A stretch of DNA of 64,000 nt from Klebsiella phage 05F01. The DNA lies in the sequence record LC483177.1. One strand, 5' to 3'. Each line of letters begins with the position of its first letter. Position 1 is the first letter of the stretch. The notes below the pieces were generated by a model. The model worked only from the letters and a program-made list of their open reading frames with translations, was not told where the DNA came from and searched no databases. Shown here one piece after another: positions 1 to 20,718 of this stretch. The translations under genes and the position numbers were made by a program.

Positions 1-459
1 GGTGATATTACTAAGCTTGGTAGTTTCTCTGAGGCAGACCCACTTGAGTTTGATATGGAAGGTCCTGTTGTATTTAACTTATATACTCAGTATGGTTATT
101 GGGGACGTAATCAAGGTAAGCGTGACCTTAACTATGATGCTATCTATAATGCACTTTCAGCAATGGCAGAACGTATGCATGATTTTGACAAAGGAGACCA
201 AGAACGCCATGTAGTAGGACTACCAAAAATTGGTGCTGGGTACGCGGGTGGAGATTGGGATATCATTGAACTGATTATTAAGAAAACTCTATGTGCGCAA
301 GGTATCGATGTTATTATCTATGTCCTTACAGAAGAAGAGATTCCAAGTAACATGCAGAAATTAATTACCTGTATGCAAGAAACTCTTGGTTGCTCGCGTC
401 ATGAGGCAAAGAGCCTTATCTATCGTCAAGTTTATAGTATGGATGGTGGTAATGTATAA
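1..459 (+). CDS. Macro-domain protein (C-terminal part; gene begins upstream of the window), possibly a PARG/DUF2263-like ADP-ribose hydrolase
   Basis: Frame 1 is open from nt 1. The motif VGLPKIGAGYAGGDWDII resembles the macro-domain glycine-rich loop (GxG[YF]xG) and the bacterial PARG LGAWGCGVFGND segment. The upstream part is consistent with the macro fold. Confidence 0.45.
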   Translation, partial: GDITKLGSFSEADPLEFDMEGPVVFNLYTQYGYWGRNQGKRDLNYDAIYNALSAMAERMHDFDKGDQERHVVGLPKIGAGYAGGDWDIIELIIKKTLCAQGIDVIIYVLTEEEIPSNMQKLITCMQETLGCSRHEAKSLIYRQVYSMDGGNV

Positions 460-484
460 ATTCCCTGCTTCTGTTATCAAGAAT

Positions 485-1261
485 ATGAAGGACAAGTATC
501 CTCTTCATGCCGAAGCTACTATTGAGGTTGCCCTACGGGGCTTCCTTGAGTATATAGAATTAGTGAAATTGTATGGTGAAGTGCCTATGTTCTCTAAATC
601 GGTAGATGATGTTTGGCATTTTATGATCCTTGATACAAAGGAGTATCAGAAATTTTGTGAAGAACGTTTAGGATATTTCTTGCATCATGTTCCTACAGGA
701 GAAGGGGACAAGACCCAGGAAGAAGAAAATAAAGCACTTCGTCTTTTATGGATGAGAGCCTGTAAACTTAGAGGATTTAACCCTTTTTCATATAGTCCTT
801 ATGAGTGCCCTGACTTATTTTATGCAGACAAAGTACTACATTCTACTTCTATTTCAACAATCAACTTGGTTGGGGAAGTGACATATGCTAAAGCATCAGT
901 AGAAAATAGAGAAAAAGGTTTGTTTTCAGTTTTTCGTAAAAAAGATACATCTGATTATACTAAGGCGTTAAAAGATAAGTATGACTCATATGGTAAGGAA
1001 GTGTATGACCCCAATACTGATCTTATGCTGCAAACACTAGTTGTGTCTAGTATTTTTGATAGTTCTGGTAACGTAAAGGAAGATGTAAAGAAAGAAACTA
1101 TAATTTCATCTGATCCTCTTGACATCTATTCCAGTTCATATTACGATACACCTACATCGAACAACCACCACACGCATAGTTGTAGTAGTTGTTCAACTAG
1201 TTCATGTTCAAGTAGCAGTTGCTCTTCAAGTAGTTGTTCGAGTAGTAGTTGCTCTAGTTAA
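485..1261 (+). CDS. Hypothetical protein with a C-terminal tandem (S-S-S-S-C)n Ser/Cys tail
   Basis: ORF in the 386..1261 frame, with the start moved to ATG 485 to avoid overlapping the upstream gene. The C-terminus HHTHSCSSCSTSSCSSSSCSSSSCSSSSCSS is encoded by AGT/AGC-TGT/TGC repeats. Confidence 0.5.
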   Translation: MKDKYPLHAEATIEVALRGFLEYIELVKLYGEVPMFSKSVDDVWHFMILDTKEYQKFCEERLGYFLHHVPTGEGDKTQEEENKALRLLWMRACKLRGFNPFSYSPYECPDLFYADKVLHSTSISTINLVGEVTYAKASVENREKGLFSVFRKKDTSDYTKALKDKYDSYGKEVYDPNTDLMLQTLVVSSIFDSSGNVKEDVKKETIISSDPLDIYSSSYYDTPTSNNHHTHSCSSCSTSSCSSSSCSSSSCSSSSCSS

Positions 1262-1271
1262 GGGAGATATT

Positions 1272-1709
1272 ATGAGTATTGTTACACAAATGAAAGCTGA
1301 TCGCATTGTGGCACGAGTTTCTGATAAAGGTACTTTTGCACTTCTTACTAATATTATTGGTGAGTATGACCTTGCTCGCACTCAAAAAGCTAATTTGAGT
1401 AAGTCAGAAGACGATGTTATGACTAAAGTTGTTAAGGTAGGTATTTCACATGCCAAGGAACAGCTATCTTCATTACAAAAAGTAGGTGCACCACAATCAC
1501 AGATTGAACGTGCCATGCGAGATATTGTAGTTCTTGAAAATTACCTCCCAGAAATGTTAAGTGAAGAGGACTTACGTGATATTGCAGAGAACTCTAAACT
1601 TTTGGGATGGAAAATGCCAGATATGATGAGACATCTTCGAGAGGGGTTTCCTAATTGTTATGATGGTGATCTTGCTGTAAAAATCGCAAAAGAGGTGTTA
1701 GATAAATGA
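1272..1709 (+). CDS. GatB/YqeY domain protein
   Basis: RBS GGGAGA precedes ATG 1272. Motifs LENYLPEMLSEEDLRDI and MPDMMRHLREGFPNCYDGDLAVKIAKEVL match the YqeY/GatB C-terminal domain signature (EYLP..LSEEEL..; GKVMG-like tail). Confidence 0.6.
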   Translation: MSIVTQMKADRIVARVSDKGTFALLTNIIGEYDLARTQKANLSKSEDDVMTKVVKVGISHAKEQLSSLQKVGAPQSQIERAMRDIVVLENYLPEMLSEEDLRDIAENSKLLGWKMPDMMRHLREGFPNCYDGDLAVKIAKEVLDK

Positions 1710-2608
1710 AACTTAAAGACTTACTTGTAAAGTATTCTGATGACGTTGACCATCTACTTGACAAGATTAAAAATATCTGGGATAGTGACGTAGAATTCAT
1801 AACTCAAGACAATAGTGGTGAAGTTTGTTTTTGGAGGAATGTTAATTTATATCATGAATCTAAAGATAAAGGCTGGTTTAGTGAGGAAGGTGATTCTCTG
1901 GTTATATATGAATTCCTCTTTAACGGTGAGGTTGCAGATGATTATGAGACAGCAGTAATTAAAAAAGAGGATTATTTAAACATGGTAAATAAAAAAGATA
2001 TTTATAAACTTGCATTCTATACTAATACAATTACAAAGGATCAGCTGCAAAAACTTTATGATATTTTACATGACAATGGTGTAGATACCTACTTTGAATC
2101 AGCAGAAGCACATGCATCAAGTAGTAATATCTTTAGTAAAGACGATCATACTATTTTTCTATGTGGTGATGTTGGTATTGAAGGGGGTAGACACAATGCT
2201 AATCTGCGAGAGATTGTCTCTTATGAGGAATTTTATTCTTTACTAAAAGAGAAACACCCGTTGGTAAAAGAAAAATCACCATCTCCACGTTTCCATAAGA
2301 AGCGAATCCCTGTTCCTGTTCGCAAGAAGGTGGATGTTGTTGTAAAATATAAAGATGGGTCTAGATATTGCTTTAAAGATGTAGTATACTGGAATGCTAC
2401 CGAAAACTCCTTCTATGTTAAAGAACGTAAAGTGGTTTCAGAAGGCATTGAGTCATCTATTGGTACATACATTGATAAAAAATATATCCAATCAGTTAAT
2501 ATCAAAGAGATTGGTGGATCTGTGAACATTGTCAGTGTAACGGATTTCTGGTATTACGGAGACTCAAGTAAGTTTTTCGGTGAAGGACTCTTCTCAAAAT
2601 CTTACTAA
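1706..2608 (+). CDS. Hypothetical protein
   Basis: 300-aa ORF with an ATGA overlap onto the upstream gene. A terminator follows it. Confidence 0.5.
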   Translation: MKLKDLLVKYSDDVDHLLDKIKNIWDSDVEFITQDNSGEVCFWRNVNLYHESKDKGWFSEEGDSLVIYEFLFNGEVADDYETAVIKKEDYLNMVNKKDIYKLAFYTNTITKDQLQKLYDILHDNGVDTYFESAEAHASSSNIFSKDDHTIFLCGDVGIEGGRHNANLREIVSYEEFYSLLKEKHPLVKEKSPSPRFHKKRIPVPVRKKVDVVVKYKDGSRYCFKDVVYWNATENSFYVKERKVVSEGIESSIGTYIDKKYIQSVNIKEIGGSVNIVSVTDFWYYGDSSKFFGEGLFSKSY

Positions 2609-2611
2609 TAT

Positions 2612-2637
2612 AAGCCCCTTTTGGGGCTTTATTTTTA
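2612..2637 (+). terminator. Rho-independent terminator (AAGCCCCTT-TTGGGGCTT hairpin plus T-run)
   Basis: Perfect GC-rich inverted repeat followed by TTTATTTTTAT. Confidence 0.7.
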
Positions 2638-2647
2638 TCTAAAGTAG

Positions 2648-2677
2648 TTGACATAGTATGTAGGGTAAGATAAAGTG
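2648..2677 (+). promoter_or_regulatory. Sigma70-like early promoter (TTGACA -35, TAAAGT/TAAGAT-like -10)
   Basis: A consensus TTGACA sits immediately downstream of the terminator. An A/T-rich -10 is about 17 bp downstream. The same architecture recurs at 13606 and 27187. Confidence 0.5.
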
Positions 2678-2702
2678 TATTCATGAAAACAAATGAGGAA
2701 AC

Positions 2703-3365
2703 ATGATGACTATCAAACATATCTCTTTCGATGTATGGAATACCTTAATCACTGCCAATAAGGGGTATGCTTTAGAGCGTTCTCAGGTGATATCTTACTT
2801 TGCAGGTATTTCCACTAAAGAAGCAGCAGAAGCTTATGCACTTGTTAAAATGTCACTTGATATGGACGCTTCTCTTGGTATCTGTAATGGTGTAAGTCAT
2901 GCATGGTATGAACTAGGTAAGTTTTTGGGAGTAGATAGGTCAACAGCAGATAAAATCAGAACGCACTGTGAGAAAGCTTTTATTGCAAACCCACCTCACC
3001 TTGATAAATCTCTGGTTGACGAGTTATCTGCTCTTAGTAATAAACATGAGTTGAGTATTAAAAGTAATACCAACTTTATTTCAGGAGAGGTATTATCTGA
3101 GACTTTGGGTTTTTATGAGATGCCGTGGTGGAGCTTCACCCACTTCTCGGATGATTATGGTTGGTGCAAACCAGATCCACTATTCTTCCAATGGACACAG
3201 GTTTGTAGTGATATTCAAGGTATTCGTGCAGAAGAAATTTTACATGTAGGTGATAGTGAAATTTTTGATGGCAAATGTGTTGACATTGGATTTAACTTCT
3301 GTAAAATTGATAACCCTGAACACTTACTGAATAAACTTAAAAATGGAGAACTCATTAATGCGTAA
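2703..3365 (+). CDS. HAD-superfamily phosphatase/hydrolase-like protein
   Basis: RBS GAGGAAA. N-terminal ISFDVWNTLI resembles HAD motif I (DxDxT variant). C-terminal HVGDSEIFDGK resembles HAD motif IV (GDxxxD). Confidence 0.5.
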   Translation: MMTIKHISFDVWNTLITANKGYALERSQVISYFAGISTKEAAEAYALVKMSLDMDASLGICNGVSHAWYELGKFLGVDRSTADKIRTHCEKAFIANPPHLDKSLVDELSALSNKHELSIKSNTNFISGEVLSETLGFYEMPWWSFTHFSDDYGWCKPDPLFFQWTQVCSDIQGIRAEEILHVGDSEIFDGKCVDIGFNFCKIDNPEHLLNKLKNGELINA

Positions 3366-4185
3366 AACAACTCAATTCTTTGCACACAATTTTTCATCTC
3401 TGGCTGATGCAGGTTTTTCTACAGATGACTACTCCAAACTTAAATTTGGTAGTAATCAGTCAGCAAAGCGTTTGGGTTATGAATTAGCAGATAGGTTCTT
3501 TATTACTAAATGTGCTGATAAGTTTAATGAGCGATTCGTGGTAATTCCTTCACCATACAATCATGTTCACAATGCAGCAACAGAAATGTCTAATCATTTT
3601 GTAAACCGATTGAATTATCTATTCTCATGCAATAAGTATAAGAATAGTGTGGAGTGGGATATTATTCACCGTAAAGTCAGTTATATCAATGATTATGGTT
3701 TCTTGAGCAAAGAGGATCGTAAATCACTTATTGATGGGGATAGCTTCTACCTCAATAAAGAATTCTGGAGTGGAAAGACACTTATTTTTATTGATGATGT
3801 CAACATTACTGGTACCCATGAAGATAAGCTAGTAGACATTCTTAACGAAAATGAAGTAGAAAATGACACTTATTTTCTTTACTTTGCAAAATACACAGGG
3901 ACCGAGGCTAATACCGAAGCTGCATTAAACTTCAGCTATATCCATAGTGTAGAGAAGTTTATTGAGATGATTAAGGAAGAACATGATGCTAAATGTCTGG
4001 TTCGACCAATTAAGTATTTGATGTCTCAACCTGAGATAACATTTAAAGTGGCGATTTCACAATTACCAACCAACTATGTTGAACACTTGTTTTTCGGTTG
4101 CTTGGCAGAAGGCTATGACAAGATTGAAAAATACAATGAGAACTTTGAGTTCTTGAAACATTTCTATGAAAGTAATATCATGTAA
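3358..4185 (+). CDS. Type I phosphoribosyltransferase (PRTase) domain protein
   Basis: TLIFIDDVNITGTHEDK matches the PRPP-binding motif of type I PRTases (hydrophobic-DD-x-x-TG-T). The start was moved to ATG 3358, which is preceded by GGAGA. Confidence 0.55.
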   Translation: MRKTTQFFAHNFSSLADAGFSTDDYSKLKFGSNQSAKRLGYELADRFFITKCADKFNERFVVIPSPYNHVHNAATEMSNHFVNRLNYLFSCNKYKNSVEWDIIHRKVSYINDYGFLSKEDRKSLIDGDSFYLNKEFWSGKTLIFIDDVNITGTHEDKLVDILNENEVENDTYFLYFAKYTGTEANTEAALNFSYIHSVEKFIEMIKEEHDAKCLVRPIKYLMSQPEITFKVAISQLPTNYVEHLFFGCLAEGYDKIEKYNENFEFLKHFYESNIM

Positions 4186-4196
4186 GGAGAGATAAA

Positions 4197-4823
4197 ATGA
4201 GTAAATTTAAAGCAGGTGATGTAGTGGTTCGTATCAATTCCACTCTAGGCGAGTCTAATTACAGCTTAGAAGAAGTGCCTATTGGATATGTGGGTGTTGT
4301 TTATGAAGGGTTCACTGATGATGATTATTTTGATTTTGGTGACAAATTCAAATACACGTATGACGATGAGGATTTTGTGTTAGCAATTTCATCTTCACCA
4401 TTATTGAGTAAGTCAGCTTATGGTGAATTCCTTGAATCAGCACAGGCGATTGCTAAAGTGCAAGGGAAAGCTTGTATTGATGAAATTACAGCTACTATTA
4501 GTAAACTTACTGCTATCCACACATATGTTGACGATGTAATTGCTGAGTTGGAAAAAATTAAAGATGAAGTATCTAAGGTTGAAAAATTCACATCAGAGCA
4601 ACTTGAAATTCTTTCAGCTTCTGTAAAAATCACCAAGTTAGTGGGTGAATACTATCGTGATGGTAAAAGTGAACCTCTGTTCTTGAATGGTAGTGGTAAG
4701 ATTCGTCCTCCTATGAACACTCAACTGCCAACAGATACATTTAGTATTGATGAAGTAGAAGGGACATTGGCTGGTATTTCTTTAGATAAAGAAGCTATCC
4801 TCACTTTGCTGCGTAGTTTTTAA
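4197..4823 (+). CDS. Hypothetical protein
   Basis: 208-aa ORF with RBS AAGGAGAG. A terminator follows it. Confidence 0.5.
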   Translation: MSKFKAGDVVVRINSTLGESNYSLEEVPIGYVGVVYEGFTDDDYFDFGDKFKYTYDDEDFVLAISSSPLLSKSAYGEFLESAQAIAKVQGKACIDEITATISKLTAIHTYVDDVIAELEKIKDEVSKVEKFTSEQLEILSASVKITKLVGEYYRDGKSEPLFLNGSGKIRPPMNTQLPTDTFSIDEVEGTLAGISLDKEAILTLLRSF

Positions 4824-4826
4824 ATA

Positions 4827-4851
4827 AAGGGGCGCAAGCCCCTTATTTTTA
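4827..4851 (+). terminator. Rho-independent terminator (AAGGGGCGCAAGCCCCTT plus T-run)
   Basis: GC-rich stem with a GCAA loop and TATTTTT. Confidence 0.7.
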
Positions 4852-4860
4852 GGGTACAAT

Positions 4861-5202
4861 ATGTCAGACTTCAGTTATGTAAAGATGGTTAAAGCAAATA
4901 AAGTCCATAGATGTTGTGAATGTAGGGGTAAAATACATAAATCAGATAAGTATGAAAAATCTTTTATTGTTCAGGATGGTGATGTAAGTGAATATAAAGT
5001 ATGTAAACACTGCTGTGAGTCTCGTGATTGGTTATTAGACCATACAGACTGGAACCATGATATTGATGGAGAAGGGCATTCTTTTTATTACACAATGCTA
5101 CGAGAACATCTGAAGGAGCAAGCCACATATGGTAATAAAGATCTATCTTTTGCTTGCTATAGACATATCGTGAGAATGGACCAAAGGAGAAAAAATGAAT
5201 AA
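4861..5202 (+). CDS. Small Cys-rich zinc-ribbon protein
   Basis: Four CxxC-like pairs (CCECRG, CKHCCE). Confidence 0.45.
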   Translation: MSDFSYVKMVKANKVHRCCECRGKIHKSDKYEKSFIVQDGDVSEYKVCKHCCESRDWLLDHTDWNHDIDGEGHSFYYTMLREHLKEQATYGNKDLSFACYRHIVRMDQRRKNE

Positions 5203-5333
5203 ACTATATTGGATACTCCTTATTTTGTCATACATCATGTTGAGTTATAATACAATTGAGTCATCTATATTTGGTTCAATGATTCTTATATCTGCAAATA
5301 CAATAGTATTTTATGATTGCAAAAGGAGGGAAA

Positions 5334-6614
5334 ATGTCAGAAAGTAAAATGTTGATTATGTTCGATTCTAAGAATAACAACAATAAATATTATGAAGCTA
5401 CATTAGATGATGCAGGAAATATCTCTGTTCGTTATGGGCGTGTTGGTGGTGGTGCTCAAACCACATCATATTCTGGTGGTAAACGTAAATTTGATAGCCT
5501 CATCTCCTCTAAAATTAAGAAAGGGTATAAAGAGGCACAACTTGAAGTGGTGAGCAGTGATACCGGATTAGTTAAACGTGGTAACGTTGTTGATGTTGCA
5601 CTGAAGCAGATTGATACTCAAGATGATATGAGTCGTGCTTTAATTCAGACCATCGCTAAAGCAAATATTCATAACATCACAAGCAGCACTAACATTAAAT
5701 ATGATGAAAAAGATGGCTTGTTTAAGACTCCTCTTGGAGTAGTTAAGAAGGAGGCTGTAGAAGAAGCAACTGCTTTACTGAGTAAGATCGAAGTTCATTT
5801 ACCTGCTTACTTAAATGATGGGAGTATGGAAGCAGAAATCTCTTCCCTAAATGACTCTTATTTTGTGCTTATTCCAAATAAGGTAAATACTACACGAGAT
5901 AAACGTTTTCTTCTCTTTAGTCAGAAAAATATTGATGTTCAAAAATCTGTATGTAAGGCACTATTGGAGACACTAGACCTTATTGAAGATCTTAAAAACA
6001 ATACAAATGAAGAAGAAAAAGTTGAAGTAGAGAAGATCTTTAACTTAGAAATCTCTCATGTAGAAGATGCCCAAACTATTGACCGTATTGTAAAATACTA
6101 CAATGAGAGTAAAAACTCCGATCATGGTGGTAGAATTATGGGGAGTCGTGTTAAAAACATTTACAAGATTAATCTGGGTAATCAGCAACAGCCTTTTGAG
6201 GAAGCTAAAGAGAAGTATGGGAACGTCCATGAGTTCTGGCATGGCACACGTGTAGCTAACCTCCTCTCTATCTTCTGTAAAGGACTTATGATGCCTAAAG
6301 AGAGTCCTGGAGCTAAGGCTGGTGCAATGTTTGGTTATGGAATTTACTTTGCTAACCAAAGTTCAAAAAGTATTAACTATTGTGACGGAATGTACTGGAC
6401 AGGTGGAAGTAACAGTGGTAAAGTTTACATGTTCCTTGCTTCTGTGGCTGTAGGTAAAGCGTATACGCCACCTCATTCTACACAAAGTAATCCACCAAAA
6501 GGTTATGATAGCTATTGGGCTAAAGCAGGTAAGTCTGGTGTTAGAAACGATGAGATCATTGTCTTTGACTTGAGTCAAGTTAGACTTGATTATTTACTCG
6601 AAATTGAAATCTAA
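5334..6614 (+). CDS. PARP-like ADP-ribosyltransferase with an N-terminal WGR domain
   Basis: RBS AGGAGGG precedes ATG 5334. WGR-like KYYEATLDDAGNISVRYGRVGGGAQTTSYSGGKRKF..KKGY. Catalytic-domain motifs are present: FWHGTR (H-G-S/T), GYGIYFANQSSKSINYC (Y-F-A...SKS) and NDEIIVFDLSQVRLDYLLEIEI (catalytic Glu). These correspond to the PARP1 H-Y-E signature. Confidence 0.75.
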   Translation: MSESKMLIMFDSKNNNNKYYEATLDDAGNISVRYGRVGGGAQTTSYSGGKRKFDSLISSKIKKGYKEAQLEVVSSDTGLVKRGNVVDVALKQIDTQDDMSRALIQTIAKANIHNITSSTNIKYDEKDGLFKTPLGVVKKEAVEEATALLSKIEVHLPAYLNDGSMEAEISSLNDSYFVLIPNKVNTTRDKRFLLFSQKNIDVQKSVCKALLETLDLIEDLKNNTNEEEKVEVEKIFNLEISHVEDAQTIDRIVKYYNESKNSDHGGRIMGSRVKNIYKINLGNQQQPFEEAKEKYGNVHEFWHGTRVANLLSIFCKGLMMPKESPGAKAGAMFGYGIYFANQSSKSINYCDGMYWTGGSNSGKVYMFLASVAVGKAYTPPHSTQSNPPKGYDSYWAKAGKSGVRNDEIIVFDLSQVRLDYLLEIEI

Positions 6615-6630
6615 TTAAGGGGAAGGTTTT

Positions 6631-7560
6631 ATGAAGAAGATAGTCTCTGAGAATGGTATGGTGACAAAATACCTCCATAATAATGGAACAGAAACATCCT
6701 TTAAGAAACAGTTATCAGGTAGCTACGTAGATTCACTAGTTAAGCCTGATTTTAAAGATAAGAAAAAGTATAGCTTAGTTTTGTCATGTTCTCATGGATG
6801 TCAGTTATCTTGTTCATTTTGCCACTTAACTCAAAATGGTAAACCTTTCAATAAGATCAACACTGAAGATGTTATTGAAAATATTAAAGAGGTCATTACT
6901 GATCAAATTAATGAAGATCCTTCACTGAAAAGTAAGTATATAAAATTTTGCTGGCTGGGGGAAGGTGAACCATTACTTAATTATGAGATGATTAAGCGTG
7001 CTACTATTGAAGTGCTATTTTGGGTATTAGAAAACAAATATGCTCTTGGTTTGGATGGAGTTGACATTTCAACTTCAATGCCAAGGGTCAAGAAAGAAAC
7101 AATAAAGGATCTTAAATGGTTCAATAAATATCTTTCTGTATTCAATAAAAACCCAAACAACAAAGATAAAACAGCACTAAGATTATTTTATTCTTTACAT
7201 GCAGTAGATAATGACATTAGGTCTAAAATGATGCCAAAAACCATTCATATTAATGATGCTGTGAAATGCATGAAGGAAGTTGGTGATGAATTTGGAATTG
7301 ACACAATTTTCCATTATACATGGATAGAAGGTAAGAATGATTCAGATGATGATGTAGATAATCTTATTAAGTTTTGGAATGAGAACTCTCTACAGAAAAG
7401 TCAACTTCGTGTCTTAAGGTACAATAGTGGGACTAATCTAGATGAAGAAAGTGAAAATCTTGGTAAGATAATTTCAAAATTAAAGAAATTCATTCCAAAT
7501 CTGAAAGTTCAACATTCAGCAGGAAAAGAGGTCCAATCTTCTTGTGGTATGTTCAACTAA
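6631..7560 (+). CDS. Radical SAM enzyme, RlmN/Cfr-like
   Basis: SCSHGCQLSCSFCHLTQNG contains the CxxxCxxC radical-SAM cluster in an RlmN/Cfr-type context (GCxLxCxFCxTxQxG). WLGEGEPLLNYEM matches the RlmN GMGEPLLN motif. Confidence 0.55.
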   Translation: MKKIVSENGMVTKYLHNNGTETSFKKQLSGSYVDSLVKPDFKDKKKYSLVLSCSHGCQLSCSFCHLTQNGKPFNKINTEDVIENIKEVITDQINEDPSLKSKYIKFCWLGEGEPLLNYEMIKRATIEVLFWVLENKYALGLDGVDISTSMPRVKKETIKDLKWFNKYLSVFNKNPNNKDKTALRLFYSLHAVDNDIRSKMMPKTIHINDAVKCMKEVGDEFGIDTIFHYTWIEGKNDSDDDVDNLIKFWNENSLQKSQLRVLRYNSGTNLDEESENLGKIISKLKKFIPNLKVQHSAGKEVQSSCGMFN

Positions 7561-7613
7561 TCTTGATTAAGATCATTATAAAAAGTGATGGAATACGTTA
7601 AAATAATAAGACA

Positions 7614-7640
7614 CAAGCCGGAATTTTCCGGCTTTATTTC
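7614..7640 (+). terminator. Rho-independent terminator (AAGCCGGAATTTTCCGGCTT plus T-run)
   Basis: Perfect inverted repeat followed by TATTTC. Confidence 0.65.
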
Positions 7641-7654
7641 ATTATGGAGGATAA

Positions 7655-9769
7655 GTGAAAAAAGTTATTAAGCGTGATGGCAGAAAAGAAAATTATGATG
7701 AAGGCAAGATTTATCAGGCAGTGTATCAGGCTGCAAATAGTATCAACCTACTATCATTAACTTGTGAAGAAATTGCTAATGATGTTGCAGAGCACATTTC
7801 AAATAAAGTAAAGAATAGAGATGAATTAAAAATAAAAGATATTGAGTCTCTGGTAGAAAATTATCTTATGTCAAAGAATAAGACCAGAGATGTGGCAAGA
7901 AAGTATATTGAATATCGTCATGATAGAGATAGTGCAAGAGAATCTGGCGGAAAACTCTATAATGATTTGTTAGGTTTTCTTGACCAAAGCAATGAAGAGT
8001 TCACGAGAGAGAATGCCAATAAACCAAGTACCCTCGTAAACACCCACAGAGACCTCTTAGCGGGTATTTTAAGTAAACACATAGCAACCACACAGATTCT
8101 CCCTAAAAACCTCTCAGAATGGCATAGAGAAGGTTGGGGACACATTCATGACTTAGATTATTTAGTTAGTCCTCTCACGAATTGTTGTTTGGTTAACTAT
8201 CGTGATATGTTAGAGAATGGATTTAAGATTGGTAATGCTCAAATTGAAAAACCCAAGTCAATTGGTGTAGCTACTACAGTGCTTACTCAAATCATTCAAG
8301 CTGTAGCATCTAGTCAATATGGTGGACAAACTTGTGCTCATATTGATTCAGGATTGAAACAGTATGTAGAACTCTCTTTCAATAAGAATGTAAAACTTAT
8401 TAGGAACTTGTTTGGTGCTGAAATAAAAACAAACGCTATGCAACTCACCGAACAAGATGTATATGATGCAATGCAGACGCTTATCTATCAAGTCAATACC
8501 TTAATGAGTGTAAATGGTCAATCTCCTTTTATTACTATCAGTCTGGGACTAGATACCTCAGAATTTGGTAGAATGATCACCAGGAATTATTTACAGATCC
8601 ATAAAGAAGGGTTAGGGGTTGATAAAGTCACTCCCGTATTCCCTAAAGTTATCTTCTTCCTTGAAGAAGGTGTTAATATGAATCCAGGTGACCCTAATTA
8701 TGATTTAAAACAATTGGCACTGGAGTGTTGTTCTGAACGTATTTATCCAGATTTTATTTCAGTTCCTCGTAATAAGATGGTAACTAATTCTTCTGATGGA
8801 CATGTAACCAGCATGGGATGCAGGTCGTTCCTTTCTTACTATGCTACTGAGCAAGGTGAGAAATATGATGGGAGATTTAATCTTGGTGTTGTCTCTGTCA
8901 ATCTTCCTATGATTGCCAAAGATTGTGTAGTAAATGGGAAGCTCTTCATTGAAGAACTCTATAAGCACATGAGGAACGCCTTTGATGCCCATATGGTGAG
9001 GATTAATCGGTTAAAAGGAACAAAAGCAAAACAAAATCCTGTCTTGTTCATGGAAGGTGCATTATCACGTCTGGATGCAGAAGATACTATTGACAAACTT
9101 TTCTATAAAGGATATGCTTCAGCTAGCTTTGGCTATGTTGGGTTATATGAAGCTGTTCAGATTTTGTATCCTAATACATCTCTAGAAGAGTATCGAGAAA
9201 AAGGATCTTTTATTCTTGATCGAATGCAGAGTATGTCAGATGAATATAAAAATAAGACTAATATTAGCTTCAGTCTTTATGGTACCCCTGCTGAAAGCTT
9301 GTGTTACAAATTTGCATCTCAACTTAATGATAAGTTCCCTGGAACATTAGAAAAAGATTATTTAACAAACTCTTTTCATGTCCCTGTTGATGTAGCTGTT
9401 AACCCATTCACTAAATGGGAAATTGAATCTGGATTTGACATTTTAAGTAGTGGTGGGAATATCGGGTATGTTGAGACACCTAATCTAAAAGGGAATATGA
9501 AAGCACTAGAGACGCTTGTTGACTTTGGTTATAGTAATATACATTACTTTGGTATCAATCAGCCAATTGATAAGTGCTTTAAATGTGGGTTCAGTGGTGA
9601 GTTTAAAGCCACACAAGATGGATTTAGTTGTCCTGAATGTGGTAACTCAGATGAAGAAACTATCAGTGTGATTCGTCGTGTTAGTGGATACTTATCTAGT
9701 CCTAATAGTAGACCTTTTAACAAAGGGAAGATGCAAGAAGTTGTCCAACGTGTGAAACACACTAGTTGA
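7655..9769 (+). CDS. nrdD: Anaerobic ribonucleoside-triphosphate reductase (class III RNR)
   Basis: GTG start after GGAGGA. N-terminal ATP-cone KRDGRKENYDEGKI. Extensive colinear similarity to E. coli NrdD (GNAQIEKPKS, DPNYDLKQLALEC, TSMGCRSF, the C-terminal Zn ribbon CFKCGF..CPECGN and the glycyl-radical motif RRVSGYL). Confidence 0.95.
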   Translation: MKKVIKRDGRKENYDEGKIYQAVYQAANSINLLSLTCEEIANDVAEHISNKVKNRDELKIKDIESLVENYLMSKNKTRDVARKYIEYRHDRDSARESGGKLYNDLLGFLDQSNEEFTRENANKPSTLVNTHRDLLAGILSKHIATTQILPKNLSEWHREGWGHIHDLDYLVSPLTNCCLVNYRDMLENGFKIGNAQIEKPKSIGVATTVLTQIIQAVASSQYGGQTCAHIDSGLKQYVELSFNKNVKLIRNLFGAEIKTNAMQLTEQDVYDAMQTLIYQVNTLMSVNGQSPFITISLGLDTSEFGRMITRNYLQIHKEGLGVDKVTPVFPKVIFFLEEGVNMNPGDPNYDLKQLALECCSERIYPDFISVPRNKMVTNSSDGHVTSMGCRSFLSYYATEQGEKYDGRFNLGVVSVNLPMIAKDCVVNGKLFIEELYKHMRNAFDAHMVRINRLKGTKAKQNPVLFMEGALSRLDAEDTIDKLFYKGYASASFGYVGLYEAVQILYPNTSLEEYREKGSFILDRMQSMSDEYKNKTNISFSLYGTPAESLCYKFASQLNDKFPGTLEKDYLTNSFHVPVDVAVNPFTKWEIESGFDILSSGGNIGYVETPNLKGNMKALETLVDFGYSNIHYFGINQPIDKCFKCGFSGEFKATQDGFSCPECGNSDEETISVIRRVSGYLSSPNSRPFNKGKMQEVVQRVKHTS

Positions 9770-12510: not shown

Positions 12511-13575
12511 ATGAACACTTTTATGAAATTTTACAAATGGCCCACATTCTTCTTTGTGTTGGCACTTTTAGCAGGGGCATGGATTGGCTTCGTTGAGGCT
12601 GGTGTAAGTGGAATGTTAAGTAGTGTATTGGCTGTTGGTATTCTGTGTATTCTTGAAATCTCACTGTCATTTGACAATGCGGTATTGAATGCTAAAAAAC
12701 TTCAAGATATGGAACAAAAATGGCGTGATTGGTTTATTAAGTGGGGGATGCTGATCGCCGTTTTCGGAATGCGCTTGGTTCTTCCTATCCTTATCGTATC
12801 TGTCTTAGGTGGAATGGCTCCGTGGACTGCTGTAAGCTTAGGTCTACATGACCCAGCTAAGTATGCAGAGGTGTTGCAAAGTAGCCACCATATTGTAGCT
12901 AGCTTTGGTGGTGCGTTCCTGATGATGGTTGCTCTTGAGTTCTTCCTTGATCATGAAAAAGATGTTCACTGGATGAAATGGATTGAATATCCTGTTAGTC
13001 ATATTGGTAAAGTGGGTATTGTTGCAGAAGCTTTCATTACACTTCTTATGATTATTGGAGCAAGTTTTGGTGCTCATGGAGATGATCAAGTGATGTTTAT
13101 TATCTCAGGTGTATGTGGTATCCTGCTCTTTGTGGGTATTCATTTCCTGAAAGAGTATCTTGAATCGAAGGATGAAGAGAAAGCAGCGGCATCTGTTGGT
13201 GCAGTAGTTAAATCAGGATTGGCTGGTGTTCTCTACCTAGAAGTTCTGGATGCATCTATGTCTTTTGATGGCCTGATTGCTGCATTTGCGATTACACAAT
13301 ATTTTCTTGTGATTATGTTAGGTTTGGGTGTTGGTGCCTTCTTTGTCCGAGAAATGACACTGCATGTTCTTGATAGTGGACATCTTGCTGAATTCCGTTA
13401 CCTTGAACATGGTGCTTTCTATGCTATCTTTTCTCTGGCTAGCATCATGCTCCTAAACTTCTTCTTTGAAGTCCCAGAAGTTGTCACCGGATTGATTGGT
13501 GTAGCATTCCTTACAGCAGCAGTGTGGCATAGTCATATCCTTAATAAACGTGAAGAGTCTCTTGTTACAAGTTGA
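12511..13575 (+). CDS. TerC-family (DUF475-like) integral membrane protein
   Basis: Multiple TM helices. LEISLSFDNAVLNA matches the TerC-family E-x-SLS-x-DN hallmark. A second DASMSFDG repeat shows the internal duplication typical of TerC. Confidence 0.6.
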   Translation: MNTFMKFYKWPTFFFVLALLAGAWIGFVEAGVSGMLSSVLAVGILCILEISLSFDNAVLNAKKLQDMEQKWRDWFIKWGMLIAVFGMRLVLPILIVSVLGGMAPWTAVSLGLHDPAKYAEVLQSSHHIVASFGGAFLMMVALEFFLDHEKDVHWMKWIEYPVSHIGKVGIVAEAFITLLMIIGASFGAHGDDQVMFIISGVCGILLFVGIHFLKEYLESKDEEKAAASVGAVVKSGLAGVLYLEVLDASMSFDGLIAAFAITQYFLVIMLGLGVGAFFVREMTLHVLDSGHLAEFRYLEHGAFYAIFSLASIMLLNFFFEVPEVVTGLIGVAFLTAAVWHSHILNKREESLVTS

Positions 13576-13576
13576 T

Positions 13577-13606
13577 AAAAAGCCCCGAAAGGGGCTTTAT
13601 TTTTAT
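13577..13606 (+). terminator. Rho-independent terminator (AAAAGCCCCGAAAGGGGCTTT plus T-run)
   Basis: GC-rich hairpin with a GAAA loop followed by ATTTTTATT. Confidence 0.75.
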
Positions 13607-13634
13607 TGACAGAATATCACTGGTAAGATAAGAT
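13606..13634 (+). promoter_or_regulatory. Sigma70-like promoter (TTGACA-17-TAAGAT)
   Basis: Exact TTGACA and a 17-bp spacer. The same -10 TAAGAT occurs at 27210. Confidence 0.6.
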
Positions 13635-13659
13635 GTATCTATCAAATGAAGAGGAGAAA

Positions 13660-14220
13660 ATGATGAACGTAACTAAAGATATGATTGATGCTTGGGTTAA
13701 GGATGCACCTGAATGGGCGGTAGGGATTGTTAAACGTGAAAGTAAACACGAACATAACAACTGTGCTTATGCATATGTAGGTGAAAAATTTGGGTATCAA
13801 TATATACTTTTTTCAAATGACGTATATCTTGACTATGTAGGTAAAAAATTTGCTTTTCAGGAATTTCAAACAGATGGTGATTCCTTCAAATATGAAGTGC
13901 TAGCGAAAACACATCAAGAACCTGTTGTTGGTGAAGATGTATTGGTCCACTTTGATGGAGATAATTCTAGTGTTTGGACGAAGTTTAAATTAGAATACCA
14001 GAAAGGTGACGTTGTTGTTCTATATGACTATCGTATTGAAGATGTAGAGACTTACAGATTTTCTCGTATCACAATGAAGAAATATGTTAAAACTGTAAGA
14101 GAAAATGCTATTGACCAGATTGCAAGTTTAATTGGTCGTGGGACTTTTGCAGAAGATGCTGAAGCAATCTATGATGCAATCAAGAGTAATGAGATCTCAA
14201 TTTTTACAGAGGAGAAATAA
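13660..14220 (+). CDS. Hypothetical protein
   Basis: The start was moved to ATG 13660, which is preceded by GAGGAGAAA. Confidence 0.45.
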   Translation: MMNVTKDMIDAWVKDAPEWAVGIVKRESKHEHNNCAYAYVGEKFGYQYILFSNDVYLDYVGKKFAFQEFQTDGDSFKYEVLAKTHQEPVVGEDVLVHFDGDNSSVWTKFKLEYQKGDVVVLYDYRIEDVETYRFSRITMKKYVKTVRENAIDQIASLIGRGTFAEDAEAIYDAIKSNEISIFTEEK

Positions 14221-14221
14221 A

Positions 14222-14656
14222 ATGAAAAATAAATTTATGGTGGCGGTTGTTCTGTCTTGTGCATTTCTTTTTGGTTGTGATGAAGATGTGCAACAGACTG
14301 CTGTTCCGGTATATCAGCAAGAACCTAACCCGGCTCCTGTGGTTGTAAATAATCCCGCACCTGTTGTAGTTCAAAATCATGATAGTGGTATGGGAAGCTT
14401 TATTGCAGGTGCCTTAGTTGGACATGCACTTAGTGGTGGTAGTAACACACGGGAACGTGTTGTTGAGCACCATTATTATGACAATCGTCCTGCCTCTACA
14501 AGCAATTACCGTAGTAATGGAAGTAGTAGCTCTCAAACAAAATACTCTGCTCCTAGTAGTCGTATCCAGACAATGAAGACACAACCTACTAAACGTAGCA
14601 CTTATACACCATTTAGCCGTTCTAGTAGCTCTAAATATTCTTCACGTAAACGTTAA
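14222..14656 (+). CDS. Lipoprotein with a glycine-zipper motif
   Basis: Signal peptide plus lipobox MKNKFMVAVVLSCAFLFGC. GMGSFIAGALVGHALSGG is a glycine zipper. The C-terminus is Ser/Thr/Arg-rich and low-complexity. Confidence 0.6.
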   Translation: MKNKFMVAVVLSCAFLFGCDEDVQQTAVPVYQQEPNPAPVVVNNPAPVVVQNHDSGMGSFIAGALVGHALSGGSNTRERVVEHHYYDNRPASTSNYRSNGSSSSQTKYSAPSSRIQTMKTQPTKRSTYTPFSRSSSSKYSSRKR

Positions 14657-14657
14657 T

Positions 14658-15236
14658 ATGCAAACTGAAGAATCTATTAAAGTCTTGTGGCGTAAGGTGA
14701 TGACTGAACTAAAGGAACATCACCCTACCTACTATAAACTACTTCTTGACAACGGGTACCGTGTAGGAGTAAGATTTAAGCATAATAATTCTTTTGGGTG
14801 GGCAAATGGAGTGGAGAAACTTGCTATTATTAATTTGTTTCTACATAGGAATAGTAATGATAGTATGGTGGTAGATACAATGTGGCATGAGTTGGCCCAT
14901 TGCATTGATTACTGTAAAAGAGGGTATTCAGATCATGGACCTAAATGGAAAGCTATAGCATCTGAAATAGGTGCAACACCAGAACGTGTTTCAAAAAGAG
15001 CAGTAAAAGTTGATTATAAATATGTTTGTGTGTACAGAAAGAGTAGTGTAGAATACATAGTATTGAAAGGGTATCACAGGAAACCTCCAGGATATAAAGC
15101 TAATAGCTTAATGTCAGATACATTCCAACGTGGCAACAAAGAAGGTAGCTACGGAAAAGTTTGGCTATATACTTGGGATAAATGGAAAGATATCTGTGAA
15201 CAACTAGGCAAATCTCCATATAAAGAGGAAAATTAA
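14658..15236 (+). CDS. SprT-like zinc metalloprotease domain protein
   Basis: The HExxH motif lies in WHELAHCIDYC with a downstream Cys/His, as in SprT/Spartan-like domains. Confidence 0.55.
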   Translation: MQTEESIKVLWRKVMTELKEHHPTYYKLLLDNGYRVGVRFKHNNSFGWANGVEKLAIINLFLHRNSNDSMVVDTMWHELAHCIDYCKRGYSDHGPKWKAIASEIGATPERVSKRAVKVDYKYVCVYRKSSVEYIVLKGYHRKPPGYKANSLMSDTFQRGNKEGSYGKVWLYTWDKWKDICEQLGKSPYKEEN

Positions 15237-15818
15237 ATGAAAAAGTGGAAAGTGGTTAAAGGTGATGGTAATCTTTTTAAAAATGCACCCAAATGGTGTA
15301 CTCAAATTTCTTCCGATGAAGATGGAACTCGCCGTTATTATGAGGAAGCTTTTGGTGTTAATGGGGCAAAATTTCAGAACATTCGTGAAGGTGCTGTTTG
15401 GTGTTTGAACAATAAAGACACCTTTAATGATGGCCTTGTAGTTATCGCTGAACGCGAATTAATTGAAGAAAAAGAAACTTCACCTAAACGAGTTAAAGGT
15501 CCTAAGCAACCTAAGAAAACATCCAATAAAGTTGTTGTAAACTATAATACAGGAGAAACCTACACAATTAAAGGTGTTGCTAGTGTGTCCCTGGAAGATA
15601 ACTCTTTCCAAGTATTCAAAGAATACAAACACGTAAATGAAATATTTAAATTTAATGGGTGTGAATTCCCATCTAAAGATGTTGCAAGTATTGAAATTCA
15701 TGGGGTTAATAAGACATATATTATTCACAAAAGTGAGGATTTTACAAACAACTTTGCATTTGTAACACAAAGCGGGGATTTTATTCTTAGTAATAGTTTT
15801 TCCTTAGTTGATTTTTGA
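15237..15818 (+). CDS. Hypothetical protein
   Basis: 193-aa ORF. Confidence 0.45.
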   Translation: MKKWKVVKGDGNLFKNAPKWCTQISSDEDGTRRYYEEAFGVNGAKFQNIREGAVWCLNNKDTFNDGLVVIAERELIEEKETSPKRVKGPKQPKKTSNKVVVNYNTGETYTIKGVASVSLEDNSFQVFKEYKHVNEIFKFNGCEFPSKDVASIEIHGVNKTYIIHKSEDFTNNFAFVTQSGDFILSNSFSLVDF

Positions 15819-15825
15819 GGTGACA

Positions 15826-16974
15826 ATGAAAAAAGTAAAACTAAGTATTGTTGAAGATTACGTAAGTCACTGGTCTTGGTGGGAAGGTGTCCGAGAACTT
15901 TTACAGAACGCCATCGATACAAAAGAATATGAAGTTGATTTTCTTTCCAATGCGATTAAGATCTCATCTCATGGAGGTAAAATACCTACACAAGCACTTC
16001 TGATGGGGCGCTCATCTAAGCAAGATGATGAAAGCACTATTGGTAAGTTTGGTGAAGGTATGAAACTTGGTTTTCTTGTCCTTATTCGTGAAGGTGCAAA
16101 AGTTCATGTTAATAACTTCTCAGATGTTTGGGAACCTGCTATGGAAATGGATGACACATTCGATCAGGAGATTCTGTGTGTGAATATTCATGAGAATATT
16201 TTACCAATGAATCAGAAAGTCGAAGTGGTGATTAATAATATCCCTAACCATGCTATGGCAGAGATTAAAGAGAAATTTGCACCACAAAAAGATTTAAAAG
16301 TGGCAATATCCAATGATAAGGGAACTGCTTACTTTAAAGATCGTGAAGGAAGTGATTGTAATTTATATGTTAGTGGGCTATTTGTATGCTCTGTTCAGGG
16401 TAAATACAAATTTGACTATGATTTCAAACCGGATGTGTTTGAACTCGATCGTGATAGGGATTCTGTTAGTGAGTTTAATGTTCAGTATTATGCATCACAA
16501 CTCATCTCTGAAAGTGACGATATCGAACTGTTGGTTGAACTTGCAATGGAAGAGTTTGACGATTTGAAATACTTTGAGGGTCGTAGAAAGAAAAACTCTG
16601 TAGGTAAATATTGGGGATGTTCATTAGATGAAAGTGAAGAAGATATTCTCACTGACCATGCTGTTGAACTTTTTGAAGAGAAGTATGGATATGATGCTGT
16701 CCCTATCAACGATTCCTGGAGTCAAGAGAAGAAATCCACTATCACAAAAGTGGCTATCTCTAAGGGATTTACTCCTATTGCAGTTAAAAAATCCCTTTAC
16801 AGTATGATTCAAGGTAGATACAATATTGAAGGTGAAGTTAACGAAATCTTGAAATTTGATGCTCTGGATTTCTTGGAGAATTTCCTTAAAAAATATGAGC
16901 GTAAGTTGTATAATAAGCCACGAAAAGAAATTGAGAATGTTATCTTCAAACTTAAACTTGCAAAAGAAAAGTGA
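15826..16974 (+). CDS. GHKL-type (Hsp90/MORC/MutL-like) ATPase domain protein
   Basis: N-box RELLQNAIDT (ExxxNAxD). A G2-box-like IGKFGEGMKLGFLV resembles Hsp90 IGQFGVGFYSAF. The start was moved to ATG 15826 after GAGGTGACA. Confidence 0.5.
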   Translation: MKKVKLSIVEDYVSHWSWWEGVRELLQNAIDTKEYEVDFLSNAIKISSHGGKIPTQALLMGRSSKQDDESTIGKFGEGMKLGFLVLIREGAKVHVNNFSDVWEPAMEMDDTFDQEILCVNIHENILPMNQKVEVVINNIPNHAMAEIKEKFAPQKDLKVAISNDKGTAYFKDREGSDCNLYVSGLFVCSVQGKYKFDYDFKPDVFELDRDRDSVSEFNVQYYASQLISESDDIELLVELAMEEFDDLKYFEGRRKKNSVGKYWGCSLDESEEDILTDHAVELFEEKYGYDAVPINDSWSQEKKSTITKVAISKGFTPIAVKKSLYSMIQGRYNIEGEVNEILKFDALDFLENFLKKYERKLYNKPRKEIENVIFKLKLAKEK

Positions 16975-16980
16975 GGTAGT

Positions 16981-20010: not shown

Positions 20011-20038
20011 TAATTTAAATAAATAAGGAGATATAAAC

Positions 20039-20646: not shown

Positions 20647-20672
20647 AGAAGGAGGGTAATTCCCCTCCTTTT
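20647..20672 (+). terminator. Rho-independent terminator (GAAGGAGGGTAATTCCCCTCCTT plus TTTTG)
   Basis: GC-rich hairpin with a T-run. Confidence 0.6.
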
Positions 20673-20698: not shown

Positions 20699-20718
20699 TA
20701 GATAGACATAAACACAAA

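Follow-up and report, generated by a model that had tools for sequence, protein, structure and literature searches.

A HAD-fold hydrolase and a PRTase_3 phosphoribosyltransferase of a Klebsiella phage as a probable two-enzyme biosynthetic arm of its Ter system

The window analysed here, a stretch of 64,000 nucleotides from Klebsiella phage 05F01 (sequence record LC483177.1), harbours two overlapping genes encoding a HAD-fold hydrolase and a type I phosphoribosyltransferase (PRTase) which probably constitute the minimal two-enzyme "biosynthetic arm" accompanying Ter (TerD/TerC/TelA/vWA) systems and making a nucleoside-like product. The phage is lytic and belongs to the myoviruses of Klebsiella, with phi92 and phAPEC8 as relatives. 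Ter loci occur widely and have clinical associations (Klebsiella, E. coli O157, Yersinia), and they have been implicated in resistance to phages, colicins and tellurite. To our knowledge, no product has so far been assigned to their PRTase/HAD arm. The pairing of the two enzymes has already been described by comparative genomics in 2012 and 2021. As later literature relates, the biosynthetic module of the 2012 Ter study consists of two or five enzymes and always includes a PRTase and a HAD protein (PMC11994780), and PRTase/HAD modules of the Ter type were also reported in phages (PMC7824862; Iyer et al. 2021). A nucleoside-like metabolite which acts together with the Ter proteins is a published prediction (PMC11994780, PMC7824862).

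The two genes and the elements surrounding them are arranged as follows.

2612-2629, + strand: terminator-like hairpin (AAGCCCC-TTTT-GGGGCTT followed by a T-run) which closes the upstream gene 1706-2608 and would form the 5' boundary of the unit
2648-2676, + strand: sigma-70-like promoter candidate (TTGACA, 17 nt, TAAAGT; 10/12)
2703-3365, + strand: gene of a HAD-fold hydrolase of 220 aa, subfamily IA with a helical C1 cap
3358-4185, + strand: gene of a type I phosphoribosyltransferase, PRTase_3 (PF15610), with an alternative start at 3343 (280 aa)
4197-4823, + strand: orf208, a 208-aa ORF of no assigned function which begins 12 nt past the PRTase stop
4827-4844, + strand: terminator-like hairpin, 3' boundary of a putative HAD-PRTase-orf208 unit

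As stated in a preliminary description of this DNA, the HAD and PRTase genes are adjacent; they lie on the + strand and overlap by 8 nt if the PRTase starts at ATG 3358 (the HAD stop codon occupying 3363-3365) or by 23 nt if it starts at ATG 3343. The former start, which is preceded by GGAG at a distance of 7 nt and agrees with a 275-aa homologue in GenBank (P0001), appears more likely from the sequence, and translational coupling of the two genes is plausible. The promoter candidate is situated within the 94-nt intergenic gap directly 5' of the HAD gene, and the hairpin at 2612-2629 is one of only three terminator-like sites on the + strand within positions 1-8000. Neither class of sites is enriched over shuffled controls (36 promoter-like sites found versus 32.7 expected, four terminator-like sites versus 3.3), so that the operon boundaries are only suggestive. 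orf208 is probably co-transcribed with the pair, as it begins 12 nt past the PRTase stop and ahead of the next terminator. Its membership in the module, however, is not supported by sequence comparison, tblastn having matched orf208 in none of 61 related loci. While a megablast search of the region at the DNA level against the phage collection gave no matches, searches at the protein level were informative. The PF15610 match, the presence of homologues in 156 phage records and the high pLDDT of the structure models (93.4 for the HAD protein and 96.5 for the PRTase) indicate that both are real genes and not chance ORFs.

The PRTase is assigned to PF15610 (PRTase_3, "PRTase ComF-like") with 151.4 bits at a cut-off of 28.7 (E 4e-44), its residues 13-271 covering profile positions 6-264 of 264. 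The PRPP-binding motif pointed out previously is indeed present: LIFIDDVNITGT, encoded by nt 3781-3816, is the sole PRPP-loop match on either strand of the 64 kb window, and the loop of the protein, LIFIDDVNITGTHE, combines the hydrophobic run, the two acidic residues and the T-G-x with a type I fold. Neither PF00156 nor any Pfam or NCBIfam model for PyrE, Hpt or Upp is matched, identity to structures of such PRTases amounts to 10-16%, and a search of the PRTase profile against the sequences of solved structures returned only insignificant matches to the HGPRT loop (E 0.45). By fold, the protein most closely resembles ComF (H. pylori, structure 7p0h), at 12% identity. In contrast to ComF, the phage protein possesses one Cys within its first 60 residues and thus no N-terminal Cys-rich zinc-finger region, lacks a PF00156 match and has some 90 further residues at its C-terminus which form a helical domain (approximately residues 186-275). 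No com genes were found near it. An affiliation with ComF or the orotate enzymes, which would have spoken against a Ter-type PRTase, is thus not what the protein exhibits. In GenBank, homologues are labelled "putative orotate phosphoribosyltransferase", which, judged from the sequences, is a common mis-annotation. Our literature searches yielded no biochemical data on phosphoribosyl transfer by PF15610 members, no characterised enzyme of this family or of the HAD clade described below, and nothing relevant in terms of functional work on gp186/gp187 of phi92 and phAPEC8.

The HAD protein has a Rossmannoid core, into which a helical C1 cap is inserted past motif I. Both motifs named in the preliminary description are found in the + strand ORF, namely FDVWNTL at residues 9-15 (motif I, D10-V-W12-N-T14) and GDSEIFD at residues 183-189 (motif IV, G183-D184...D189). 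Across 73 sequences the nucleophile Asp10, Thr14 at position +4, motif II (S121-N122), motif III (K156-P157) and motif IV are invariant. The position two residues past the nucleophile, at which the general acid/base Asp is expected, is occupied by Trp12 (D-x-W-x-T). This Trp, too, is shared by all 73 sequences, as well as by each of eight copies examined from phages and bacteria; it may represent a caveat new to the literature, as in its presence the rate or even the type of reaction could differ from that of an ordinary phosphomonoesterase. In the profile searches proposed earlier the protein matched no Pfam family at E<=0.01, PF00702 and PF13419 at their thresholds included, both of which are carried by more distant relatives; in NCBIfam, TIGR02252 scored 35.3 bits, below its cut-off of 155.2. 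The protein does not belong to the 5'-nucleotidases of the dNMP-salvage type. Compared with PH0253 from Pyrococcus horikoshii (PDB 2om6), an uncharacterised "probable phosphoserine phosphatase", the HAD protein is 21% identical.

The association of the two genes is obligate. In all 49 evaluable loci the PRTase gene is immediately preceded by the HAD gene on the same strand, with gaps from -5 to 252 nt. Each of the two proteins occurs in 156 phage records with an identical breakdown by organism, and among the matches listed the genes are adjacent in every case. Their pairwise identities co-vary (r 0.88, 28 pairs). Furthermore, 14 of the best 149 family representatives are HAD::PRTase_3 fusion proteins which retain the N-to-C order of the separate genes and whose HAD domains are recognised with E-values from 1e-23 to 1e-48. 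The contexts of two of these fusions (P0330 and P0256) are too short to be informative. A scan of species-representative genomes by means of strict peptide patterns returned four loci, a number which is no gauge of how rare the pair is in bacteria.

The Ter genes of the window, whose location at 12.5-20.6 kb had been correctly described, are assigned by Pfam and share the strand of the pair.

12511-13575, + strand: TerC-like integral membrane protein (DUF475/TerC; PF04332 E 5e-93, PF03741 E 3e-17)
16981-18036, + strand: TelA-like protein (PF05816 E 8e-27)
19201-20010, + strand: vWA domain protein of the TerF-C type (PF10138 E 1e-38)
20039-20638, + strand: TerD-domain protein (PF02342 E 1.4e-30)

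The pair is located 8.3 kb from the nearest of these genes, with a PARP gene, a radical SAM gene and NrdD/NrdG in between. Ter genes are present within 10 kb of the pair in 13 of 15 close loci and in 9 of 21 distant ones, while tblastn detected none within this distance in 12 of the 21 divergent loci whose flanks are long. In close relatives TelA is retained at a distance of 4-6 kb downstream of the two genes, and vWA-TerF occurs in 195 phage records which span the phage groups in which the pair is found. When 23 divergent loci are compared, the families recurring as neighbours in at least three are TerD, vWA-TerF, TelA, DUF475 and TerC plus two non-Ter families, an R2K ATP-grasp and a 430-aa ORF without a Pfam match (three loci each). 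The pair is embedded in ter clusters at seven loci (L005, L012, L013, L039, L050, L063 and L065); DUF475/TerC homologues immediately precede the HAD gene in L012, L013 and L039, and TerD genes flank the pair in L005, L039, L040, L046, L050, L054 and L063. Divergent phage and metagenome loci show the order TelA-vWA-...-TerC/DUF475-HAD-PRTase-TerD, and one fusion protein resides within a TerD-TerD-...-fusion-...-TerC locus. The pair is also found in two bacterial ter loci: in a Haliea MAG the genes are ordered DUF475-TerD-TerYx3-PP2C-...-TerD-HAD-PRTase, and on a Hymenobacter plasmid a DUF475-kinase-PP2C-VWAx2-TerDx3 cluster is divergent from HAD-PRTase. The earlier claim that PRTase and HAD genes are recurrently linked to ter genes is thereby substantiated. 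In jumbo phages, Ter genes lie 25-87 kb from the pair, and the copies of an Akkermansiaceae MAG and of Rhizobium pRL10 have no Ter neighbour.

Compared with the two-enzyme module of Anantharaman, Iyer & Aravind (2012), which exists in bacterial ter loci and phages alike, the pair agrees in PF15610, in the HAD partner and in the linkage to TerD, TerC/DUF475, TelA and vWA (TerF/TerY) genes. It differs in that it forms a small unit of its own with the unrelated 208-aa ORF, away from the Ter genes, and in that genes for TerY-kinase-PP2C, TerB, ATP-grasp, TIM-barrel and second PRTase proteins are missing. Neither a second PRTase (searched for by PRPP-loop regex) nor an R2K ATP-grasp, which neighbours the pair in three jumbo-phage-like contigs, is present in the window; hence the phage has the two-enzyme and not the five-enzyme version. 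A search of IncHI2 and Klebsiella ter plasmids with the HAD protein gave no match, the HAD of the Klebsiella/IncHI2-type ter island being not detectably related to it. PADLOC assigned neither the HAD nor any Ter protein to a defence system, and a literature search for Ter genes of Stephanstirmvirinae, or for TerY-P together with a PRTase, returned nothing relevant.

PRPP-dependent phosphoribosylation followed by 5'-dephosphorylation is the most likely chemistry of the pair. We infer the following sequence of reactions, acceptor, product and role. PRTase_3 would bind PRPP via its intact loop and transfer ribose-5-phosphate to a nucleophilic acceptor, presumably, in line with the literature prediction, a base-like small molecule. 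The HAD enzyme, using Asp10 as nucleophile and the Mg2+ site of motif IV, would then strip off the 5'-phosphate to yield a ribosylated, nucleoside-like product. This product would act together with the membrane-associated Ter proteins of the phage during infection and might, as suggested in the literature, serve envelope or ion homeostasis or the exclusion of competing phages.

That such a sequence of reactions is real chemistry is known from CriT/CrpP and gPRT/PRP of capsule and O-antigen synthesis, in which a PRPP-dependent transfer is followed by dephosphorylation by a HAD enzyme (PMC10299916, PMC11231755). These systems (CriT/CrpP from H. influenzae Bcs3; gPRT/PRP from Klebsiella O4/O7 and Thermobacillus composti, PDB 8a0c, 7shg) share the two-step logic with the phage pair; there, too, the HAD precedes the transferase and both fused and split versions exist. 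In motif I of the CrpP HAD, too, the first Asp is retained and the second missing (PMC10299916; PMC11231755). The likeness suggests an alternative in which the chemistry is the same but ribose-5-phosphate from PRPP is placed on an acceptor other than a nucleobase, such as a glycan, a lipid, an envelope component, a protein or a nucleic acid, before the HAD removes the 5-phosphate. We consider this rather unlikely. CriT and gPRT exhibit no sequence similarity to PRTase_3, and no homology of the transferase domains was found; the comparison concerns the way of working and not family membership; the PRTase_3 model is nearer to ComF and the nucleobase PRTases than to CriT. The context of the phage pair consists of Ter genes, that of the comparators of capsule or O-antigen clusters. 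In an extension to which we give only a small chance, HAD(D-x-W-x-T)::PRTase_3 would be no nucleoside synthase but a general PRPP-dependent "ribosylase" of non-base acceptors (an envelope lipid or glycan, a Ter protein, a nucleic acid); it could be analogous to CriT/CrpP and have evolved independently from a ComF-like PRTase.

The preliminary description had offered, as its own alternative, a function in NAD/ADP-ribose salvage beside the PARP. The pair would then operate in NAD+/ADP-ribose metabolism jointly with the PARP and a macrodomain protein, recycling ADP-ribose or nicotinamide or processing ADP-ribose-derived signals. The PARP gene (5313-6614) indeed lies 1.1 kb downstream of the pair, and the window contains a macrodomain gene ending at 459. 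All 16 evaluable close relatives have a macrodomain gene behind the PRTase gene, which it overlaps in phage JohannJBalmer, and in Rhizobium phage RHph_Y65 an NMN adenylyltransferase/Nudix gene is situated 250 nt downstream of the pair. Yet none of the 61 related loci contains a match to the PARP, and a macrodomain gene is located downstream of the pair in none of 22 divergent loci; that of the window sits upstream, behind three genes and a terminator. With PF15610 as its sole Pfam match and none in NCBIfam, the PRTase hit no NAD-salvage family, and the bacterial copies of the pair reside in ter loci, not in NAD loci. As the PARP is never a neighbour elsewhere and the macrodomain gene is confined to the closest phage lineage, this function is improbable and the earlier suggestion has little in its favour.

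That the pair serves phage DNA replication by plain nucleotide salvage or house-cleaning, with an orotate or purine PRTase and a 5'-nucleotidase as the GenBank label implies, is very improbable: besides the missing profile matches and the low structural identities reported above, salvage would be defeated by dephosphorylating the nucleotide just made, linkage to NrdD is limited to the close lineage, and neither so strict a pairing with a HAD gene nor the fusions nor the linkage to Ter genes would be expected of salvage enzymes. Hardly any probability remains for a non-biosynthetic PRTase, a nucleotide-depleting or -binding effector or a regulator directed against the host or rival phages after the manner of retron type III-A PRTase effectors, ShosT, PurR/PyrR or ComF: PRTase domains do occur in defence toxins, as the accessible parts of PMC11961720 and PMC12746101 report, ComF as best fold match is a PRTase domain without an assigned catalytic role, and PADLOC gives a weak match to the retron PRTase_III-A effector (PDLC02935, E 1.6e-5, 22 bits), but this match is at superfamily level and restricted to the core region (residues 27-180), no reverse transcriptase gene, ncRNA or antitoxin partner accompanies the PRTase, an obligate HAD partner whose active site is intact is more in keeping with a two-step pathway, and the 69% identity of the PRTase to its counterparts in E. 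coli phages (NrdD, 71%), which places it among the most conserved proteins of the region, suggests a housekeeping-like constraint in the phage.

The two-enzyme Ter arm thus probably occurs here in its smallest form, which the phage has in common with its E. coli relatives phi92, phAPEC8 and the BASEL phages JohannJBalmer, PaulScherrer and EmilieFrey: two overlapping, strictly conserved genes which are elsewhere sometimes fused. The invariant Trp of the HAD, the HAD::PRTase_3 fusions and the parallel with PRPP-dependent ribofuranosyltransferases refine the published prediction. Should the less probable "ribosylase" prove true, what has been sought since 2012 as the Ter metabolite would turn out to be a macromolecule or a component of the membrane that has been ribosylated, and phages would deploy it to remodel the envelope of the infected cell. 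Since these phages infect genetically tractable hosts, the question of what the PRTase/HAD arm of Ter systems produces becomes testable.

The preliminary description had placed a HAD-like gene next to a phosphoribosyltransferase (PRTase) gene, and both are indeed present as overlapping open reading frames on the plus strand. The first contains the motifs FDVWNTL and GDSEIFD, while the second harbours the PRPP loop LIFIDDVNITGT (nt 3781-3816), the sole PRPP-loop match across the whole 64 kb window. The phage is a Klebsiella myovirus of ~147 kb, kin of the phi92-like (Justusliebigvirus) and phAPEC8-like (Phapecoctavirus) phages, to whose homologues its PRTase is 63-70% identical. The region comprises the following features:

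2612-2629, plus strand: terminator-like hairpin 5' of the HAD gene
2648-2676, plus strand: promoter-like site TTGACA-17-TAAAGT 5' of the HAD gene
2703-3365, plus strand: HAD ORF, 220 aa
3343-4185, plus strand: PRTase ORF in its longest form, 280 aa
4827-4844, plus strand: next terminator-like hairpin, downstream of a third ORF of 208 aa

ATG 3358 is the more likely PRTase start compared to 3343, since it is preceded by GGAG 7 nt 5' and agrees with the start of the 275-aa GenBank protein of "Klebsiella phage 05F01" (P0001), which is 100% identical to the window PRTase. It leads to an overlap of 8 nt between the PRTase start and the HAD stop codon. As the promoter- and terminator-like sites are not enriched compared to shuffled sequence, a transcription unit comprising HAD, PRTase and the 208-aa ORF is only a suggestion. 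Further upstream, the ORF at 386-1261 (+) ends in a Ser/Cys-rich low-complexity C-terminal tail, …HSCSSCSTSSCSSSSCSSSSCSSSSCSS (nt 1150-1261), which shares its DNA, read in a different frame, with the first part of the ORF at 1119-1709; from about nt 1269 on the latter encodes a GatB/YqeY-like domain (phrog_1460).

The HAD and PRTase genes are one unit. We collected 61 loci with a PRTase relative from phage records, species-representative genomes, viral contigs and metagenomes; in all 49 whose upstream sequence spans 700 nt or more, to which the count was limited, the HAD gene lies directly 5' of the PRTase gene on the same strand, with gaps of -5 to 252 nt. Within the phage collection each gene occurs in exactly 156 records with identical organism breakdown, and the two abut in every row among the matches listed, examples being phi92 gp186/gp187, phAPEC8, Caulobacter phage CcrColossus as well as Rhizobium and Brevundimonas jumbo phages. 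Their pairwise identities co-vary (r 0.88 for 28 non-independent pairs). A profile search over 1.84 billion cluster representatives retrieved 812 members of the PRTase family, PRTase_3 (E<=1e-3). Among the best 149 of these 812 there are 14 HAD::PRTase_3 fusions, which put the HAD domain first in accordance with the gene order, one protein of PRTase-HAD-PRTase architecture (P0220) and six with PRTase_3 domains in tandem, two or three per protein. Two such domains are found in P0239, P0255 and P0332, three in P0277 and P0296; at locus L067 a stand-alone PRTase_3 gene precedes a fusion gene. Five records of ~146-151 kb labelled "Campylobacter phage" (MG065639, MG065645, MG065650, MG065656 and MG065689) show HAD and PRTase identities equal to those of E. 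coli phi92-like phages, and in four of them the same holds for vWA-TerF or TelA; this may reflect contamination or a wrongly assigned host.

The Ter arm, previously located at 12.5-20.6 kb, is encoded at 12511-20638 by four genes, all co-oriented with the pair:

12511-13575, plus strand: TerC-like DUF475 protein
16981-18036, plus strand: TelA
19201-20010, plus strand: vWA domain protein of TerF-C type
20039-20638, plus strand: TerD

The claimed link of the pair to Ter loci is borne out by bacterial ter loci, divergent contigs and neighbouring gene families. In a Haliea MAG the pair lies at the end of a locus of canonical layout (DUF475-TerD-TerY x3-PP2C-...-TerD-HAD-PRTase, one TerY having TerY_C), and a plasmid of Hymenobacter monticola carries it in divergent orientation to TerD x3-VWA x2-PP2C-kinase-DUF475. 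Divergent phage-like contigs, whose PRTase is 45-51% identical, show the order TelA-vWA-...-TerC/DUF475-HAD-PRTase(-TerD), and one natural fusion protein has two TerD genes on one side and TerC on the other. When all ORFs within ~6 kb of the pair were clustered for 23 divergent loci, the families present in at least three were TerD (6), vWA-TerF (5), TelA, DUF475, TerC, an R2K-type ATP-grasp and a 430-aa ORF without Pfam match (3 each). Ter genes lie no more than 10 kb from the pair in 13/15 close loci and 9/21 divergent loci with long flanks, counts which are lower bounds because the window's own proteins served as tblastn queries. vWA-TerF occurs in the phage groups that have the pair, and TelA in most of them. 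Since Ter genes are distant from the pair in jumbo phages (25 kb in CcrColossus, 87 kb in RHph_TM30), occur in some phages that lack it, and are missing from its neighbourhood in an Akkermansiaceae MAG and Rhizobium pRL10, the pair behaves like an arm accessory to Ter systems, not always in physical linkage with them.

Several further genes were observed in these neighbourhoods. A SleB-like cell-wall hydrolase gene (20671-21255, +; PF07486, E 1.6e-19) directly follows TerD, and its homologues adjoin Ter genes or the pair in close relatives and in the distant loci L019, L042 and L059. The Ter arm includes a gene for a SprT-like metalloprotease domain protein (14658-15236, +), kept directly 5' of TelA in the relatives L008, L014, L023 and L030. 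An R2K-clade ATP-grasp (PF14243, E 2e-19) is encoded ~2.5 kb upstream of the pair in the jumbo-phage-like contigs L015, L018 and L037 (L037 6605-7495), all three devoid of detected Ter genes over 10 kb; this may represent an extended biosynthetic module. The radical SAM protein encoded at 6631-7560 (+) has a distant RlmN/Cfr likeness (TIGR00048 E 2.5e-17, far below cut-off; phrog_27142), and a homologue (25% identity) is found ~6 kb downstream of the pair in CcrColossus (L006 19105-20010).

Although the window HAD protein itself has no match in Pfam and only a sub-threshold match to NCBIfam TIGR02252 (REG-2-like HAD), its membership of the HAD fold is firm, as PF00702 or PF13419 is found in more distant relatives and its profile recovers PDB 2om6 (E 3.7e-19). 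The nucleophile Asp10, Thr14, Ser121-Asn122 (motif II), Lys156-Pro157 (motif III) and Gly183-Asp184...Asp189 (motif IV) are unvarying in 73 sequences. The Asp+2 position of motif I is Trp without exception in the same set, and D-x-W-x-T is also found in bacterial ter-locus HAD copies and in 2om6. In ordinary HAD phosphatases this residue is the general acid/base and matters for phosphomonoester hydrolysis, so that the Trp is a caveat for a phosphatase role. CrpP, however, a characterised HAD phosphatase which takes the 5-phosphate off ribofuranose-5-phosphate, likewise retains just the first Asp of motif I (PMC10299916).

This precedent suggests that the same two-step chemistry may serve a different acceptor, which need not be a nucleobase. 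In capsule and O-antigen ribofuranosyltransferases a glycan receives Rib-5-P from PRPP through a PRTase-like domain, and the phosphate is taken off by a HAD domain (PMC10299916, PMC11231755); they share with the pair the order HAD then transferase and the occurrence of fused and split forms. Since the PRTase_3 model does not resemble them, the likeness is one of functional analogy, not of membership. A defence-toxin-like role of the PRTase is suggested by a single observation, a weak match in PADLOC, at core level, to the PRTase effectors of retrons (E 1.6e-5).

The alternative that the pair acts in NAD/ADP-ribose metabolism rests on its proximity to a PARP gene (5313-6614, +) and to a macrodomain gene cut by the left window edge (ending at 459), and it fared poorly. 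The PARP, eukaryote-style with WGR (E 1e-7), regulatory (5e-6) and catalytic (4e-26) domains, is unmatched by tblastn throughout the 61 related loci, E. coli phage relatives included, and therefore looks like a lineage-specific acquisition. A macrodomain gene directly follows the PRTase gene in 16/16 close relatives but in 0/22 divergent loci; in the window it lies upstream of the pair, separated by three genes and a terminator, which indicates a rearranged region. Its fragment (1-459, +, frame 1 from nt 1) aligns to residues 145-243 of the macrodomain protein of the related E. coli phage JohannJBalmer and has a weak DarG-like PADLOC match. Rhizobium phages show a nucleotide/NAD-metabolism neighbourhood around the pair which differs from other lineages; in RHph_Y65 (L007 5834-6406, 10186-11436) an annotated NMN adenylyltransferase/Nudix gene follows 250 nt after the pair and an adenylosuccinate synthetase gene is nearby. 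Ordinary nucleotide salvage, the basis of "orotate phosphoribosyltransferase" annotations, is backed by no HMM and clashes with the obligate phosphatase partner.

Strict pairing, fusions and recurrent Ter linkage thus support the reading of the pair as the PRTase/HAD arm of Ter-associated systems, a kind of pairing already described by comparative genomics, of which the window provides a further example. As reported in PMC11994780, Anantharaman, Iyer and Aravind (2012) describe Ter biosynthetic modules of two or five enzymes, each with a PRTase and a HAD, whose likeliest product is a pyrimidine-derived ribonucleoside. With neither a second PRTase nor an ATP-grasp relative found in its 64 kb, the window corresponds to the two-enzyme version. 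In Iyer et al. 2021 (PMC7824862), PRTases and HAD phosphoesterases are listed as the part of Ter systems that makes the signal; the authors report a fairly complete system in one jumbo phage, also name "certain other related smaller tailed phages" and suggest an involvement in the contest with superinfecting phages. To this framework the present analysis adds how strict the pairing is (49/49 loci, 156/156 phage records, fusions), the invariant Trp at the general-acid position of the HAD, the evidence against a PARP link and for a macrodomain link within one lineage, and, as a precedent for the two-step chemistry, CriT/CrpP of the H. influenzae Bcs3 capsule. No biochemically characterised family member was found in the literature. 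For identifying the Ter-associated product, a long-standing aim, the coliphage and Klebsiella-phage pairs offer a convenient minimal system.
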